A stretch of 64,000 nucleotides of DNA, from the NCBI GenBank assembly GCA_965197855.1, contig OZ240230.1:64153-128152 (forward strand), read 5' to 3'. Positions within the stretch are counted from its first letter, which is position 1. Each line of letters starts with the position of its first letter. Below are positions 5,992-49,276 of this stretch, in pieces. Made by a program: the position numbers and the translations under genes. Source of the stretch: Bdellovibrionales bacterium (GTDB lineage Bacteria; Bdellovibrionota; Bdellovibrionia; Bdellovibrionales; UBA1609). Below the pieces are notes generated by a model. It was not told the DNA's origin. It searched no databases and saw nothing but the letters and a program-made list of their open reading frames with translations.

Positions 5992-6900
5992 TTACAGTAT
6001 TTTATTTACTTTGTACTTGTGGCCATTCTTGTAATGATAAGAGCAGTTCTTAGAACAAGTTTGATAAAGTTTATCTTTTTTTATGCAAATGGAACAAACG
6101 ACACATTCTTTATGGCAGTGCTGGCATGAGATGGATTGATCTCCGGCTTGTCCGCAGTGCGGACAGAGTTTGTATTTTTGAGATGGTTTTAATTCTTGGT
6201 TGAGGGTGACTCGATGATCAAACACAAAGAGATCTCCTCTAAATTGAGAGTTTGGAAACTCTTTTAAATAATTAAGAACCCCTCCTTTAAGTTGCTGAAC
6301 TTGTTTAAAACCTTGGGTTCTCATTTCATTGAGAGCTTTTTCACATCGAATACCTCCTGTACAGTAAATAAGAATATTTTTATCTTTTGGAATTGGAGAT
6401 TCTTTTAGTTTTTCTGGAAAATCTTTAAATTGATTGAGATTTAAGTCTAAAGCTGTTTCAAACTTTCCCGCTCGTATTTCATAATTATTTCGAATATCCA
6501 GTAGGATAGATTGTTTATCTTTCATAGCAGATTCCCACTCAGAAGGAGTGAGATGTGTGTTTTCTGAAAAAGGGGAGAGCTTATCTTTTCCTGATGCGAC
6601 CAGTTCTTTTTTAATTTTAACTCTCAGTTTTTTAAATCCCCAGGAATTGGATATTTGCCATTTGGCTTGAATGGGAATTCCTGTCTCTTCGCGTAAAACT
6701 TGTAAATATCTTTTCAGATGACGTAAAGAACCTACTAATGTAGCATTGATACCTTCTCCGGAAAGTAATACCAATCCTCGAAGGCCTAAACCCCTACTGA
6801 GAATAACCTCGCTTAACGTATTGAGACGTTCGCTGGGCAGGGGGTGATAGTGATAAAAGGTGCAGACAGAAAGAGGTTTTTTAGTTAAGAGTGAATTCAT
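5992..6900 (-). CDS. trhO: Rhodanese-domain protein of the YceA/TrhO (UPF0176) family, a putative tRNA uridine(34) hydroxylase
   Basis: 302 aa with the active-site loop YCTGGIRCEKA typical of this family and a C-terminal Cys-rich tail (CPHCGQ...CQHCHKECVVCSIC). Confidence 0.8.
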   Translation of the reverse strand: MNSLLTKKPLSVCTFYHYHPLPSERLNTLSEVILSRGLGLRGLVLLSGEGINATLVGSLRHLKRYLQVLREETGIPIQAKWQISNSWGFKKLRVKIKKELVASGKDKLSPFSENTHLTPSEWESAMKDKQSILLDIRNNYEIRAGKFETALDLNLNQFKDFPEKLKESPIPKDKNILIYCTGGIRCEKALNEMRTQGFKQVQQLKGGVLNYLKEFPNSQFRGDLFVFDHRVTLNQELKPSQKYKLCPHCGQAGDQSISCQHCHKECVVCSICIKKDKLYQTCSKNCSYHYKNGHKYKVNKIL

Positions 6901-9383: not shown

Positions 9384-11288
9384 ATGATTTTTAAAAAAGA
9401 TACAGCCGAATCAGAGGCTCAGCCGGAATCTGTTGGCAAAAAAGTTCAAATTCAAAGAGAAGTTTTACTGACTCAATTGGATAAAGAGGATGCTAACATT
9501 GAACCCAATCCTCATGAAAAATCTTATGGTGATGAATCTCATACTTTTGAAAAATTTTATAATGAAAATATAGCTCAGCAAAACTTTGAAGTGGGCGCTA
9601 TTGTAAAAGGTAAGATTGTGGAAGTGGATGACGATTATGTGGTTGTGGATGTGAATTACAAAAGTGAAGGGCTTATTCCTAAATCAGAATTTCAAGGCGC
9701 TGAAGGTTTTGTCGGTATTGAGATTGGTGGAGAGGTCGAAGTTTATATTGATTCTATTGAAAATGATAATGGAATGATGGGGCTATCTAAGGATAGAGCA
9801 GATATTATTCGTGTCTGGGAAGATATTTCTCGAGTGGCTAAAAATCAAGAAGTTATTGAAGGCACTGTCATCGCAAAAATTAAAGGCGGTTTGCAAGTAG
9901 ATATTGGAGGGGTCAAAGCATTTTTACCCGGAAGTCAATTGGAGCTTCGCCCTGTTAGAAATCTCAATCAGTATTTAGGTAACAAATATTCTTTTAAAAT
10001 TATTAAATTTAATCAGAAGAGAGGAAATATTGTTCTTTCCAGAAGAGTGATTTTAGAGGAAGAAAGAGCCAGCCTAAGAACTCAAACTTTGGACGGCATC
10101 GAAAAAGGTTCGGTTGTCAGTGGTATTGTTAAAAATATTACAGATTATGGTGTGTTTTTGGATTTAGGCGGTATTGATGGACTCTTGCATATTACGGATA
10201 TTAGTTGGAGCCGCATTAAACATCCTTCTGAAAAACTTTCTATTGGTGAGACTATTCAAGTTAAAGTTTTGAAATTTGATAAAGAGAAAAAGAGGGTGAG
10301 TTTGGGTTTAAAACAGCTTCATGAACATGAAAACCCTTGGGAACAAATAAAAAATGATATTAAAGCGGGATCAAAGGTAAAAGGAAAAGTCATGAGCTTT
10401 ACGGATTACGGAGCTTTTGTGGCTATTAAAGAAGGTGTTGAGGGGTTAGTGCATATTAGTGAAATGAGCTGGGGTAAAATAGTTAAAACTCCGTCTGATG
10501 TATTAAAAATTGGTGAGGAAGTGGACTTACAGGTGATTCATGTGGATCAGGAACAACAGCGTATTAGTTTTAGTATAAAAAGGCTTCAGGAAAATCCATT
10601 TCAAAAATGGATTGCTAAGTATCCTGTCGGGGAAAACCAGGAAGTCGTAGTGGATTCTATAATGGATTTTGGATTTCTTGTACATTTTGTAGAGGAGGAA
10701 GAAGTCGAAGGCTTAATTCGTTTAGCGGATTTGACATGGTCTTCTCGAGCTACAAAACCAAAATATCAAATTGGGGATAGAGTGAAAGTTGCTGTTTTAG
10801 GGTTTAATGTGGAAGAGGAAAAATTTCAATTAGGGGTTAAACAGCTTCATAAAAATCCTTGGGAGCAAATTGAATCTCTTTATTCTATTGGCTCCGTCTA
10901 TAAGGTAAAAGTAGTGAAGATTATGGACTTTGGAGCTTTCGTGGAACTGTGTGATCATAAAGATGCTGGAGTTGTAGAGGGTTTAATTCATATTAGTGAG
11001 CTGGATACGAAAAGAGTGGCCAAAGTTGAAGATGTAGTAAAGATTGGAGATGTTTTAGATGCTGAAATTATTACTATGGATAAAGAGTCTCATAAAATTG
11101 GTCTGAGTGTTAAATTAGTTAAGCTGAGACAAGGACCGGAACATGTCTCTAAGGATAAAACTTCAGCACCTATGAAGACTTCTCCTAGTGAATCTGAAGA
11201 ACAAAAAGAAAGTTTCTTTGCAAAAGCTCTTCGTGCTTCTATTTCCAAAGGGAAATCTACTCCAAAAGAAAAATCTGAAGATATATAG
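9384..11288 (+). CDS. rpsA: 30S ribosomal protein S1
   Basis: 634 aa with six recognisable S1/OB repeats (for example GAIVKGKIVEVDDDYVVVDV, GSVVSGIVKNITDYGVFLDLGGIDGLLHITDISW, GSKVKGKVMSFTDYGAFVAI...GLVHISEMSW). The true start could be downstream of the annotated ATG. Confidence 0.9.
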   Translation: MIFKKDTAESEAQPESVGKKVQIQREVLLTQLDKEDANIEPNPHEKSYGDESHTFEKFYNENIAQQNFEVGAIVKGKIVEVDDDYVVVDVNYKSEGLIPKSEFQGAEGFVGIEIGGEVEVYIDSIENDNGMMGLSKDRADIIRVWEDISRVAKNQEVIEGTVIAKIKGGLQVDIGGVKAFLPGSQLELRPVRNLNQYLGNKYSFKIIKFNQKRGNIVLSRRVILEEERASLRTQTLDGIEKGSVVSGIVKNITDYGVFLDLGGIDGLLHITDISWSRIKHPSEKLSIGETIQVKVLKFDKEKKRVSLGLKQLHEHENPWEQIKNDIKAGSKVKGKVMSFTDYGAFVAIKEGVEGLVHISEMSWGKIVKTPSDVLKIGEEVDLQVIHVDQEQQRISFSIKRLQENPFQKWIAKYPVGENQEVVVDSIMDFGFLVHFVEEEEVEGLIRLADLTWSSRATKPKYQIGDRVKVAVLGFNVEEEKFQLGVKQLHKNPWEQIESLYSIGSVYKVKVVKIMDFGAFVELCDHKDAGVVEGLIHISELDTKRVAKVEDVVKIGDVLDAEIITMDKESHKIGLSVKLVKLRQGPEHVSKDKTSAPMKTSPSESEEQKESFFAKALRASISKGKSTPKEKSEDI

Positions 11289-12272: not shown

Positions 12273-13009
12273 GGCAGAGTTATTCAGTGGGGTTCCCTGT
12301 TGTTTCTCCTTTTGTTAAAGCTTTAGTTATTACAAATGTTGTAGCTTGGTTTGTCTTGGTTTTATTGCTTCAGCAATTTTTTTTGGATTCTCCTTATGTA
12401 TTTCAATTTTTAGGTTTGGTTCCCGCCTCATTTTTAAAGGGATACTTATGGCAGTCTTTTACTTACATGTTTATTCATGCATCTGGTATTTTTCATATTT
12501 TATTTAATATGTTGATTCTATGGATGTTCGGCTCAGAGCTGGAAAGACTTTGGGGGTCGCGTTTTTTTCTAACCTACTACCTTACTTGTGGAGTAGGAGC
12601 GGCTTTCATCTATTGTCTTGTTTTAATGTGTGTGGCTTTTTTTACAGACGTGCATTTAACAGGGGTTCCTGTAGTGGGCTCTTCAGGAGCTATCTTTGGA
12701 TTGATGGTGGCTTATGGCCTTATTTTTAAAGATCGCATTTTGTATGTCATGATGATTTTTCCAATGAAAGCGCGCACTTTTATTTATTTTCTTGCAGGTA
12801 TTGAAATTTTAAGTGTCTTAAGCTCTGGATTGGGAGGCCCTGTAGCTAACTTAGCACACTTGGGAGGATTGGTAACAGGGGTGCTTTTTTTGGTTTCTTG
12901 GAAAAACTGGCATAGCGTTTCATCTTGGATCAAAAGAAAAAAACCTCATCGCCTGCGTGTGATTCATTCAGATGATACGGATGAGAAAAGTAATAGGCGC
13001 TGGCACTGA
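12269..13009 (+). CDS. Rhomboid-family intramembrane serine protease
   Basis: 246 aa, polytopic. The catalytic GxSG reads VVGSSGAIFGL, and the His-bearing helix reads AHLGGLVTG. There is a 4-nt overlap with sppA. Confidence 0.85.
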   Translation: MRQSYSVGFPVVSPFVKALVITNVVAWFVLVLLLQQFFLDSPYVFQFLGLVPASFLKGYLWQSFTYMFIHASGIFHILFNMLILWMFGSELERLWGSRFFLTYYLTCGVGAAFIYCLVLMCVAFFTDVHLTGVPVVGSSGAIFGLMVAYGLIFKDRILYVMMIFPMKARTFIYFLAGIEILSVLSSGLGGPVANLAHLGGLVTGVLFLVSWKNWHSVSSWIKRKKPHRLRVIHSDDTDEKSNRRWH

Positions 13010-44926: not shown

Positions 44927-45124
44927 GTCATCCCTACGTATGTATTATTTACGTCATCCCTTAACACATGCTTTCCTGCCAATACATGCCACCCTTTGCG
45001 CTTGTCATCCCCCTAGGCACGTTGTCATTTCTCAAAGACCGTCATCCTAGCAAAAGCACAAGTCATTCTCATAAAAACACGTCATCTTGTACACACGTCA
45101 TCCCCGCGAAGGCGGGGATCCGCC
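44927..45124 (+). repeat. Array of 8 GTCAT(C/T)(C/T) half-site motifs at about 16-26-bp spacing (one 51-bp gap), ending in a family A hairpin (A9a)
   Basis: Motif starts at 44927, 44953, 45004, 45024, 45041, 45062, 45081 and 45097. Several are preceded by acac or ttac. The last runs into gtcatccccgcgaaggcggggatcc. Confidence 0.7.
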
Positions 45125-45152
45125 TTTCATATACGACTCAGTCTTTGTACGT

Positions 45153-45217
45153 CTGGATTCCTGCTTTCGCAGGAACGAGGCGGTGAGGTGCCAATCGAAA
45201 TCGCTGAGTCAAGTCAC
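45153..45217 (+). repeat. Family A repeat, long form (A9b), abutting the tRNA-Ser-linked tandem elements
   Basis: ctggattcctgctttcgcaggaacgaggcggtgaggtgccaatcgaaatcgctgagtcaagtc. Confidence 0.85.
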
Positions 45218-45238
45218 AGGCACCATATCTTTTTATCA

Positions 45239-45393
45239 TGCGGAGAGAGGGGGATTCACCCACTACAGTCACTCACTTCCAGTTCGTTCCTTGCGTAGGC
45301 TCACTTCAAGCACTAAGCAAAACATCCAGTTTTGCTTCTCCGTATTAGCTGTTTTCACAGCTCACACGGATCGTGTTTTCATTTCGAATCCCC
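45239..45393 (-). repeat. tRNA-linked structured element, Ser copy 2 (tandem; the 202-bp period includes the 47-nt hairpin spacer)
   Basis: Identical to copy 1 except for 2 substitutions that I could find (gattcAcc vs gattcGcc; agctGtttt vs agctAtttt). tgcgg anchors at 45239, 45441 and 45643 give an exact 202-bp period. Confidence 0.8.
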
Positions 45394-45440
45394 ATTAGGA
45401 CAAAAAGATATGAAATCTTCGATCCCATATCTTTTTATCA

Positions 45441-45595
45441 TGCGGAGAGAGGGGGATTCGCCCACTACAGTCACTCACTTCCAGTTCGTTCCTTGCGTAG
45501 GCTCACTTCAAGCACTAAGCAAAACATCCAGTTTTGCTTCTCCGTATTAGCTATTTTCACAGCTCACACGGATCGTGTTTTCATTTCGAATCCCC
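45441..45595 (-). repeat. tRNA-linked structured element, Ser copy 1 (155 nt): conserved core closed by a 9-bp stem and ending in the exact 3' T-stem/acceptor strand of tRNA-Ser
   Basis: The minus strand reads GGGGATTCGAAATG...[core]...CTGTAGTGGGCGAATCCCCCTCTCTCCGCA. The last 20 nt are identical to the 3' end of tRNA-Ser plus its 2 trailing nt. The core is homologous to the Ala-linked copy at 48504-48655. Confidence 0.8.
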
Positions 45596-45603
45596 ATTAG
45601 GAC

Positions 45604-45638
45604 AAAAAGATATGAAATCTTCGATCCCATATCTTTTT
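45604..45638 (-). terminator. A/T-rich hairpin immediately 3' of tRNA-Ser (candidate terminator)
   Basis: 11-bp inverted repeat aaaaagatatg (45604-45614) / catatcttttt (45628-45638). On the minus strand the second arm ends in a T-run. The whole hairpin is duplicated at 45402-45436 as part of the 202-bp repeat. Confidence 0.4.
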
Positions 45639-45644
45639 ATCATG

Positions 45645-45733
45645 CGGAGAGAGGGGGATTCGAACCCCCGAGATGGTTTTAGCCATCTACACGCTTTCCA
45701 AGCGTGCGCCTTCAGCCGCTCGGCCATCTCTCC
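45645..45733 (-). tRNA. tRNA-Ser (anticodon GGA)
   Basis: The reverse complement folds by eye into a cloverleaf. Acceptor GGAGAGA/TCTCTCC plus discriminator G; anticodon stem CACGC/GCGTG with loop TTGGAAA (GGA). There is a long variable arm (TAGATGG...CCATCTC), as expected for Ser. T-arm GGGGG-TTCGAAT-CCCCC. No encoded CCA. Confidence 0.9.
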
Positions 45734-46163
45734 TAGTCTGGAAATACATTCAATACCGAGTGTTATGCAAAGCAATAATATCTTTGTATTTTGACAAAAC
45801 TATCTAATATTTGAAAAAATTTCAATAGGAATCACTTTCAAGGATAGAAAGATTAAAAAACCCATATTAGATCAAAGAAATTCCAAGGATTGGAAAATTG
45901 TCCAATCTATTCCCATCCCATCTTCCTCCCTTAAAGAGAAGCTGGAATTTCTTCCATCAAAAGAAGAAAAAATAAGACCCCTTAAACTTATCGACCAAAG
46001 AGATCTAAGTTTTCAGGAATCCACTACAACTGCCAAAGCACCCGCTCCAACTCCCGAACAAAAATCTTCCAGCACTCCTGTTCAACAAACAACAAAACAA
46101 AAATCCAAATCTTCATACTTTGTTCAACAGCTAAAAAAACAAACTATTTATTACAACAAACTC

Positions 46164-48374: not shown

Positions 48375-48385
48375 TATATCTATAT

Positions 48386-48458
48386 GGGGCTGTAGCTCAG
48401 CTGGGAGAGCGCGACGCTGGCAGTGTCGAGGTCAGGGGTTCGATCCCCCTCAGCTCCA
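48386..48458 (+). tRNA. tRNA-Ala (anticodon GGC)
   Basis: GGGGCTG acceptor (G3:T70 pair present), D-arm GCTC-AGCTGGGA-GAGC and anticodon stem CGACG/TGTCG with loop CTGGCAG (GGC). T-arm AGGGG-TTCGATC-CCCCT and 3' strand CAGCTCC plus A. No encoded CCA. Confidence 0.9.
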
Positions 48459-48467
48459 ATAAAAAAA

Positions 48468-48496
48468 AGAGGGGGCTGTAAGCTCTCTCTTTTTTT
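48468..48496 (+). terminator. Rho-independent terminator after tRNA-Ala
   Basis: 10-bp stem agagggggct (48468-48477) / agctctctct (48481-48490) with two G-T wobbles and loop gta, followed by tttttt (48491-48496). Confidence 0.75.
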
Positions 48497-48503
48497 GTCG
48501 GAA

Positions 48504-48655
48504 GGGGGATCGAATTGAAGTCTCGATTCGTGTTGGCTGTGAAACAGCTAATACGAAGAAACAAAACTAGATGTTTTGCTTAGAGACTGAAGAGAGTCTA
48601 CGCAAGTTGTGAGCGTGAAGCGAACAACTGTAGTGGGCGATCCCCCTCAGCTCCA
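48504..48655 (+). repeat. tRNA-linked structured element, Ala copy (152 nt): same core as the Ser copies but ending in the exact 3' T-stem/acceptor strand of tRNA-Ala
   Basis: It reads GGGGGATCGAATTGAAG...[core]...CTGTAGTGGGCGATCCCCCTCAGCTCCA. The last 18 nt (CGATCCCCCTCAGCTCCA) are identical to tRNA-Ala 48441-48458. The closing stem is 48504-48512 / 48638-48646. Internal hairpins are at 48536-48548, 48562-48578, 48584-48599 and 48605-48629. Confidence 0.8.
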
Positions 48656-49248: not shown

Positions 49249-49276
49249 TGGATTCCTGCCTGCGCAGGAATGACGT
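49249..49276. repeat. Family A hairpin-only module (A10), downstream of the Omp85 gene stop
   Basis: ctggattcctgcctgcgcaggaatgacgta, with stem attcctgc/gcaggaat. Confidence 0.65.

Follow-up and report, generated by a model that had tools for sequence, protein, structure and literature searches.

Folded, tRNA-tailored elements of an apparently undescribed family behind two tRNA genes of a Bdellovibrionales bacterium

The tRNA-Ser(GGA) gene in the 64,000-nt stretch of contig OZ240230.1 analysed here (hereafter the window), from a Bdellovibrionales bacterium, is followed by a tandem array of 202-bp units, each consisting of the terminator hairpin of the tRNA and an element of about 145 nt, which we call E. 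The 155-nt piece between the junctions of the array is a conserved folded element with compensatory changes and not filler, and E apparently represents an undescribed family of structured modules located in tRNA 3' trailers on the tRNA strand. Displaced tRNA fragments at islands are already known; what appears to be new is a family of tRNA-tailored structured elements with presence/absence and copy-number polymorphism. The interpretation that we favour, and to which we give an even chance of being correct, is that E would be a structured RNA module of tRNA trailers, in which the duplicate of the tRNA tail drives gain, loss and duplication and doubles as a secondary attachment site for islands.

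On the minus strand (45223-45733) the tRNA-Ser gene is followed by a hairpin, a segment running from GGGGATTCGAA to GGGCGAATCCCCCTCTCTCCGCA, the hairpin and the segment once again, and half a hairpin. This anatomy, a tRNA with repeated units of a hairpin spacer and an element that terminates in a tRNA 3' end, was described in the original prediction and is borne out by the sequence, ARAGORN and Rfam (Table 1). Tandem Repeats Finder reported a period of 202 with 2.2 copies, 99% matches and zero indels, and the 19-mer GAATCCCCCTCTCTCCGCA has exact matches only at 45239, 45441 and 45643 (chance expectation 0.01), so that the exact period and the three anchors proposed earlier were both recovered. 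This 19-mer forms the first 19 nt of a 35-nt direct repeat, present three times at a distance of 202 nt (45223-45257, 45425-45459 and 45627-45661), which begins at the GAAT of the tRNA-Ser T-loop and extends 16 nt beyond the tRNA. CCA is not encoded by the tRNA-Ser gene, the discriminator G of which is at 45645. Exactly two positions distinguish the units (T at 45553 against C at 45351, and C at 45460 against T at 45258), the number originally given, and this small difference supports the recent duplication that had been proposed. Both changes exchange G-U and G-C within predicted stems, a hint of structural constraint that, with two changes, is suggestive and no more. A spacer hairpin had also been predicted and does exist, although its length is not the 11 bp first stated, the fold comprising about 19 pairs including G-U, with one compensatory pair between the window and the related contig L034. 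The array reflects one recent tandem duplication, which could have arisen either through unequal exchange between the 35-nt repeats or through integrase-mediated exchange between sister copies. The open reading frames (ORFs) at 45087-45794 that overlap the tRNA and the array are most simply regarded as spurious, and the one ORF of this group that was checked had no Pfam match.

A third copy of E was found 2.8 kb from the array, behind tRNA-Ala(GGC), by blastn of the unit (61 nt, 87% identity, 48546-48606). The layout mirrors that at tRNA-Ser, with the tRNA followed by a hairpin between an A-run and a U-run, AGGGGGATCGAA, a body homologous to the Ser copies, and GGGCGATCCCCCTCAGCTCCA. The 5' arm AGGGGGATCGAA (48503-48514) matches the T-loop and T-stem 3' strand of tRNA-Ala exactly as a reverse complement, and the 3' end CGATCCCCCTCAGCTCCA (48638-48655) reproduces the tRNA-Ala 3' end exactly from the T-loop on, the repeat at this locus being 17-18 nt. 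Thus both tRNA genes of the window carry an E with a common body and tRNA-specific arms: at tRNA-Ala the arms GGGGGATCG and CGATCCCCCTCAGCTCCA match tRNA-Ala, whereas the body is homologous to that of the Ser elements. Since the Ala T-loop (UUCGAUC) is non-palindromic, the 5' arm must be an inverted and not a direct copy; a direct T-stem/T-loop copy is excluded at tRNA-Ala, where only the reverse complement fits.

A single unit folds at -77.7 kcal/mol, with a z-score of -8.3 compared to shuffled sequence, and E alone folds at -56 kcal/mol on the tRNA-sense strand as compared to -39 kcal/mol on the antisense strand, an asymmetry of 17 kcal/mol. The fold is a junction of the helices P3, Px (bearing P4a, with a GAAA loop, and P4b) and P5. 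In the closing helix P3, GGGGAUUCG is paired with CGAAUCCCC, which duplicates the T-loop and T-stem 3' strand of the tRNA. The T-loop and T-stem of the tRNA recur in reverse complement at the 5' end of E, and this "anti-T-arm" GGGGATTCG, the 5' side of P3, has the tRNA 3'-end copy CGAATCCCC...CTCTCTCCGCA as its partner, leaving the copy of the acceptor 3' strand CUCUCUCCGCA as a tail before the next copy of the hairpin. Two pairing partners are possible for the anti-T-arm: the upstream tRNA (11-13 bp) and the tail copy (9-10 bp). The orientation of E relative to the tRNA is constant, always on the tRNA strand and in the 3' trailer.

Relatives were obtained as the contigs of three homologues (62% identity) of a 736-aa neighbour protein, L033, L034 and L035. 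The metagenomic contig L034 is syntenic with the window, comprising two DUF507 ORFs, a 433-aa gene, a large secreted protein, tRNA-Ser, a coiled-coil gene and tRNA-Ala. Its tRNA-Ser is followed by one complete unit, 86% identical to that of the window, and a second unit that ends after about 100 nt (1.5 copies). E was found again behind the tRNA-Ala of L034, where the tail of the copy includes the CCA encoded by its tRNA gene, and a second E, 96% identical to the first, is located 2.25 kb downstream with an AbiEi/AbiEii cassette in between. In L033, tRNA-Ser and a homologous terminator hairpin are present without E, and as the hairpin occurs at this empty site it is the tRNA's own terminator. 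The tRNA-Ala of L035 is likewise an empty site, and that of L033 has no E but is directly abutted by an integrase-bearing island. In L033 the flank that comes after the first tRNA-Ala E of L034 (TTCTCCTATAAGTTACTGAAAT...) adjoins the tRNA itself, so that E amounts to a discrete indel of about 205 bp with the tRNA-tail repeat as its boundary. Across the window and its relatives a site holds 0, 1, 1.5 or 2 copies of E, and the numbers at the syntenic tRNA-Ser site (2 in the window, 1.5 in L034 and 0 in L033) lend comparative support to the original proposal that the repeated tRNA tail allows the array to expand and contract. Copies within one genome are 96-99% identical compared to 86% between orthologues, indicating that duplication or homogenisation recurs independently in each lineage.

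The fold has been maintained in spite of sequence divergence. Orthologous E of the window and L034 are 86% identical, as compared to about 52% for the adjoining intergenic DNA and 62% for the neighbour protein. Within 197 aligned columns there are 27 substitutions, 16 of them in paired columns, and only 2 pairs are broken, where random placement of the 27 substitutions on the minimum-free-energy fold of the window sequence alone would break 9.0 +/- 2.2 pairs (P about 0.0009). An alignment of five copies (the two Ser copies of the window, the Ser copy of L034, and the Ala copies of the window and L034) has 50 consensus pairs in six helices with 97.6% of the cells paired, and compensatory changes on both sides were observed in 21 of the 50 pairs, a result matched by 0 of 500 shuffles; slid controls were about 40% paired. 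Moreover, P3 covaries with the identity of the tRNA, Ser or Ala. E thus combines a conserved secondary structure, compensatory changes and strand specificity, as expected for a structured RNA.

Table 1. Features of the tRNA-Ser and tRNA-Ala loci of the window
Feature	Position	Strand	Basis or remark
tRNA-Ser(GGA)	45644-45733	minus	ARAGORN; Rfam tRNA, 57.4 bits (lower coordinate 45644/45645 by tool)
Repeat copy 0, GAATCCCCCTCTCTCCGCATGATAAAAAGATATGG	45627-45661	minus	T-loop to tRNA 3' end to 16 nt of trailer
Terminator-type hairpin of tRNA-Ser, spacer of unit 1	45601-45641	minus	Fold, about 19 pairs, then UUUUUGU
Terminator hairpin, second copy, spacer of unit 2	45399-45439	minus	Inverted repeats, pair table
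Element E, Ser copy 1	45452-45596	minus	R2 match 166 bits; folds; covariation
5' arm of Ser copy 1, GGGGATTCGAA	45585-45595	minus
P3 3' strand of Ser copy 1, CGAATCCCC	45452-45460	minus
Single-stranded tail of Ser copy 1, CTCTCTCCGCA	45441-45451	minus	Copies acceptor 3' strand and discriminator; within repeat copy 45425-45459
Element E, Ser copy 2	45250-45394	minus	R2 match 166 bits
Tail of Ser copy 2 and last 16 nt of 35-nt repeat (left half of hairpin only)	45223-45249	minus	Distal array end
tRNA-Ala(GGC)	48385-48459	plus	ARAGORN, Rfam
Terminator-type hairpin after tRNA-Ala	48461-48499	plus	Read from sequence: A-run, G-U-rich stem, CUGUAAG loop, U-run
Element E, Ala copy	48503-48655	plus	blastn, sequence, arm scan; R2 match 154 bits

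A counterpart was found in Patescibacteria by scanning metagenomes for the tRNA-Ser 19-mer followed by GGGGATTCGAA at 32-62 nt, a distal tRNA-end copy not being required. The scan returned 13 loci: nine with an E-like architecture, one (L015) with a full tRNA-Ser(GGA) but just a body-less GGGGATTCGAATCCCCC hairpin, and three unrelated loci in which a convergent tRNA-Ser gene supplies the motif. The nine loci were assigned to the candidate phyla radiation (CPR) by their HtpX, LemA and GroEL neighbours and by the source names "Candidatus Kaiserbacteria" and "Patescibacteria group", and they contain a full tRNA-Ser(GGA), a spacer, the 5' arm, two hairpins and mostly a second tRNA 3'-end copy, either intact or degenerate. 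L022 is truncated, and two or three tandem elements are found in L016, L017 and L020. Six cores, designated type 1, align well and show compensatory changes in 12 of the 21 pairs of a hand-drawn P3/P4/P5 structure (0 of 500 shuffles). In many copies the 5' strand GGAGAGAG pairs with the tail and, together with an extra hairpin, forms a tRNA-like acceptor stem; here the terminator is placed after E, and from their sequence tRNA and E look like one transcription unit. E is missing at related loci with other tRNA-Ser alleles (L027 and L031) as well as in L024, which has the same tRNA as L011. In L011 two 98%-identical copies flank a 1.1-kb two-gene cassette, the ORFs of which had no Pfam match and a sole, marginal PHROG match (E-value = 0.039, function unknown). 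In addition, L022 and L025 hold tRNA-tail fragments of foreign alleles.

Some further observations were made at these and similar loci. L013, L014, L021 and the viral L005 share another arrangement, of a T-loop-type tRNA-Ser tail fragment, a terminator and a convergent tRNA-Ser, and they fit the search pattern solely because the inverted tRNA supplies GGGGATTCGAA. L025 (about 6240-6345) contains a displaced tRNA-Ser copy that starts at the anticodon stem and has a 56-nt hairpin-containing insertion exactly within the T-loop, which may be an intermediate form of the element, and a remnant of a different tRNA-Ser allele (CTCTCTCCGC) lies nearby. On the 5' side of an intact tRNA-Ser, L018 (1218-1284, minus strand) carries a partial module of P4 and P5 (31 bits with the covariance model R1), ahead of which stand the initial 17 nt of a tRNA-Ser (GGAGAGATGGCAGAGTG). 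Small motifs recur as well: a CUGUAAG (UGUAA) loop is found in the tRNA-Ala terminator hairpins (window 48476-48482; L034 about 10493-10499) and in P5 of Patescibacteria type 1, CUGUAG is found in the P5 3' strand of the window elements, and the motif GAAC..GAAGUGAG(C/U)AA is common to window-type P5 and Patescibacteria spacers.

According to the interpretation of E as a structured RNA module, E and the tRNA would share a transcript, which would arise by read-through of the hairpin or, for the Patescibacteria form, would be a tRNA-E dicistron that stops at the terminator behind E. E would accumulate as a stable structured RNA, drawing for its 3' end on the tail and terminator of the tRNA. Recombination would use the duplicated tail, of which 19-35 nt are identical to the tRNA, as a substrate, with unequal exchange giving 0, 1 or 2 units, and the tail copy would act as a secondary attachment site where integrase-borne islands land, which would also explain the cassettes between two copies of E. 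A role at the RNA level is indicated by the compensatory evolution on the tRNA-sense strand, the GNRA-type loops, the fixed orientation to the tRNA and the dicistronic layout in CPR. At the DNA level, the repeat from the T-loop onward, the precise empty sites, the stacking of islands and the foreign tail alleles are signs of site-specific insertion at tRNA genes. The anatomy of the putative E RNA suggests a role in mimicking or sequestering the 3' half of the tRNA, and control of tRNA maturation or mimicry of the 3' half is plausible.

Several observations weigh against a function of E as RNA. No convincing promoter was found within a unit, and in the window a terminator-like hairpin is located between tRNA and E. 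G-T pairs also form in single-stranded DNA, hence a role as folded DNA is possible, and the T-loop start of the repeat, the empty sites and the cassettes between copies are at the same time the classic signature of integrase insertion. The covariation sets are small, five and six sequences. Furthermore, the Patescibacteria copies score at most 23 bits with covariance model R2 and are not detected by it, and R1 gives only about 20 bits on the window copies; a common architecture of the window and Patescibacteria elements has been shown but sequence homology has not, and the two may be analogous. Finally, the distal tRNA-end copy has decayed in some Patescibacteria copies with no compensating change in the 5' arm, which is more as expected of a displaced tRNA fragment than of an RNA helix under functional demand.

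If the fold acts in DNA, E could be a folded single-stranded recombination site, similar to the hairpins of integron attC or CTX phage attP, belonging to small non-autonomous integrative cassettes; the hairpin formed by anti-T-arm and tail copy would then mimic the double-stranded tRNA attachment site, and the recombinase would be encoded elsewhere. Such a site would agree with a structure that is kept while the sequence varies, with the strand-specific fold, with arms fitted to the target tRNA, with insertions that are precise compared to the empty sites, and with the copies of E that bracket gene cassettes in L034 and L011. However, no recombinase gene was found in the window or near any copy, and the ends of E are unlike attC core sites, since they read GGGGATTCGAA / CGAATCCCC and not RYYYAAC / GTTRRRY. 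Moreover, the GNRA-type loops (GAAA, GUAA) and an orientation that always follows that of a highly transcribed tRNA speak rather for RNA, a circular or single-stranded form of E is hypothetical, and we consider this explanation unlikely. It is improbable, in our view, that E is a pure DNA remnant with incidental folds, that is, the ends of a tRNA-integrating island or an integrase-less cis-mobilizable mini-element that lost its cargo and was duplicated via attachment repeats. An IMG/VR prophage contig (L004/L006) is bounded by the same 19-mer with the same T-loop start and has a tyrosine integrase adjacent to this terminal repeat, showing that the tRNA-Ser tail is a genuine integrase target. 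In line with a remnant, the Islander model of a regenerated tRNA and a displaced fragment applies (PMC4383910), an integrase island abuts tRNA-Ala in L033, and foreign tRNA-tail alleles are present in L022 and L025. On the other hand, random remnants would not have preserved a single precise architecture behind two tRNAs and across two phyla, nor would they be 86% identical beside unalignable DNA or to have 21 of 50 pairs compensated and a strand asymmetry of 17 kcal/mol, and the tRNA-specific anti-T-arm is left unexplained. The conservation beside diverged DNA together with the maintained fold would rule out a neutral scar, and a remnant is disfavoured by the substitution test (P about 0.0009) and by the five-copy covariation. 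Lastly, near-identical 202-bp repeats can be mis-assembled from short reads, and the tandem copies might be due to faulty assembly or might be polymorphic within the population that was sequenced. This is most improbable, as two fixed differences separate the copies, the independently assembled L034 also has tandem copies, and the array lies within a source contig of 1.4 Mb.

Integration sites in the T-loop were reportedly treated by Williams in 2002. In the Islander concept, integrated islands end in a regenerated tRNA and a displaced tRNA 3' fragment (PMC4383910). The loci described here resemble such islands and prophages in the repeat from T-loop to 3' end, in the repeat arrays, in the empty sites of relatives and in the islands that adjoin copies. 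A direct repeat of the tRNA 3' end is present (35 nt three times at tRNA-Ser and 17-18 nt at tRNA-Ala), as are empty sites with matching flanks (tRNA-Ser of L033 and tRNA-Ala of L035), but a tyrosine integrase inside the element was found neither in the 202-bp units nor among the window ORFs of at least 150 aa. In contrast to Islander-type elements, the E unit is only about 200 bp long and without integrase, contains an inverted T-arm copy and a compensated fold, and has kept orthologous positions. Cis-mobilizable elements (CIMEs) are non-autonomous derivatives of integrative elements (PMC5704250, PMC7563491). The E unit is similarly flanked by attachment-like repeats, lacks recombination genes and occurs in tandem arrangements with other elements, whereas CIMEs are kilobase-sized, decayed and without a defined fold, and a cognate integrase that would mobilise E in trans is hypothetical. 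As compared to miniature inverted-repeat transposable elements, the P3 arms of E are inverted repeats of 9-11 nt that change with the host tRNA, and the flanking repeat is a 17-35 nt tRNA tail and not a short fixed target-site duplication. In integron attC sites structure is conserved over sequence and the fold is strand-specific; they are recognised by the IntI integrase and contain R/L core boxes. E likewise shows more conservation of structure than of sequence, folds strand-specifically and brackets cassettes (in L034 and L011, not in the window), but it is without IntI and R/L core boxes, is anchored to tRNA genes and is built from tRNA sequence.

Among RNAs, 3'ETS-leuZ (a small RNA from a 3' external transcribed spacer), tmRNA and YrlA are derived from tRNA trailers or are tRNA-like. 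E shares with them its position in the tRNA trailer, on the same strand, and the re-use of tRNA-derived helices, but it is far larger than a trailer fragment, is found in tandem and is not recognised by ARAGORN and Rfam as a tRNA or tmRNA. The Xanthomonas small RNA sX4 (Rfam RF02223; PMC3300014) is also similar in that its model consists of tRNA-Ser and a trailer whose G-run pairs with the T-stem 3' strand. However, the sX4 matches at our loci (18-44 bits compared to a gathering threshold of 70) stop short of the E body, covering tRNA and spacer only. Because the sX4 consensus contains a complete tRNA-Ser, the model gives sub-threshold matches on any tRNA-Ser with its trailer, and we rejected sX4 as the identity of E. 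Where published sX4 annotations derive from tRNA sequences, the tRNA-Ser content of the model has to be borne in mind.

At the array, the tRNA-Ala and the related loci, only tRNA reached the Rfam gathering threshold, and ARAGORN found no tRNA or tmRNA in E, its only calls being the two tRNAs of the window and one tRNA at each related locus. On the basis of anatomy we also rejected a hammerhead or other small ribozyme, tmRNA, tRNA-Sec, retron msr/msd, type III antitoxin repeats, a homing site of CRISPR-associated transposons, an IS110 bridge RNA and a primer-binding site: junction sequences mismatch, genes for a reverse transcriptase, toxin, transposase or Cas protein are not adjacent, and a CCA-complementary site is absent. 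A metagenome scan for the exact tRNA variable arm and 3' end gave 0 matches, junctions and motifs specific to the element were likewise absent (0 matches) from the viral sequences scanned (IMG/VR), blastn against phage records was negative, and a literature search found no description of an E-type element. The window has a GC content of about 35%, and its ORFs of at least 150 aa encode, according to Pfam, housekeeping and envelope functions (BamA/TamB-like proteins, a PBP1-type protein with transglycosylase and transpeptidase domains, ArgRS, TsaD and RNase Y) as well as a protein with leucine-rich repeats and a reprolysin domain; no integrase (Phage_integrase), transposase or reverse transcriptase was found among them by Pfam in the 64 kb. 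The closest genome in the contig search was a Bdellovibrionales metagenome-assembled genome without synteny to the window, and with this match a Leptospira-like origin, which the GC content had suggested, was set aside. Two window proteins had no exact matches, and P0002, a homologue with 39% identity, was not syntenic.

Genomic islands dock mainly at tRNA genes, and the small repeats found there tend to be written off as scars. The "scar" described here is a folded and conserved element of about 145 nt that is tailored to its tRNA and stands behind two different tRNAs. Gain, loss and duplication of it have occurred among close relatives, defence cassettes are in some cases bracketed by it, and Patescibacteria contain a structural counterpart. 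As an RNA, E would be a new family made from tRNA parts; acting as DNA, it would be a structured attachment site of a new kind. A more far-reaching proposal, which we regard as doubtful, is that E constitutes a new class of portable tRNA-tailored RNA modules with a closing helix rebuilt from the host tRNA, spreading between tRNA genes and between phyla (the Bdellovibrionales-like lineage and Patescibacteria), the tail serving as a programmable landing pad that stacks defence cassettes while the tRNA itself is unharmed. The covariance models R1 and R2 are available for genome surveys.

The tRNA-Ala(GGC) site of the relatives is a hot spot for defence islands (L034 10399-17411; L033 10436-18433). 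The island of L034 comprises AbiEi/AbiEii, BrxR, a set of SMODS, HORMA and AAA ATPase genes of the cyclic oligonucleotide-based antiphage signalling type (CBASS) and Vsr, and that of L033 a tyrosine integrase, an HTH_17 protein, an OLD/AAA_15 ATPase and an Eco57I-like gene; none of these genes is present at the tRNA-Ala site of the window. Before the second E of L034, a degenerate tRNA-Ala 3' copy without CCA (CACACCCCTCAGCTCCAAT) is found at 12709-12730. The resident tRNA-Ala encodes CCA, so that this locus combines tail alleles of more than one origin.

Directly past the array (45110-45222, minus strand) the hairpins GUUCCUGC-GAAA-GCAGGAAU and CCCCGC-CUUC-GCGGGG have loops of the GNRA and UUCG types, and a similar hairpin, CCUGC-GCAGGAAUGACG, is found at 49256-49275 (plus strand). 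These hairpins, which have no Rfam match, may be part of a small RNA or of a structured leader. Window positions 44900-45110 (minus strand), lying between the array and the 847-aa gene that starts at 44860, hold six exact GATGAC motifs, mostly (G)GGATGAC, as well as AATGAC/ACGAC variants, spaced about 16-50 nt apart, where about 0.03 were expected. By its sequence this cluster could be an array of binding sites, or else a GGA-repeat RNA resembling CsrB with the terminator-like hairpin at 44901-44919 as its end; a CsrA homologue was sought in the window and the retrieved related sequences and not found. Finally, DUF507 is encoded by two adjacent ORFs, matching the N- and C-terminal halves of the Pfam model, in the window (40505-41082) and in L034 (1697-2276), and because it is conserved in both, this split is not a frameshift error.

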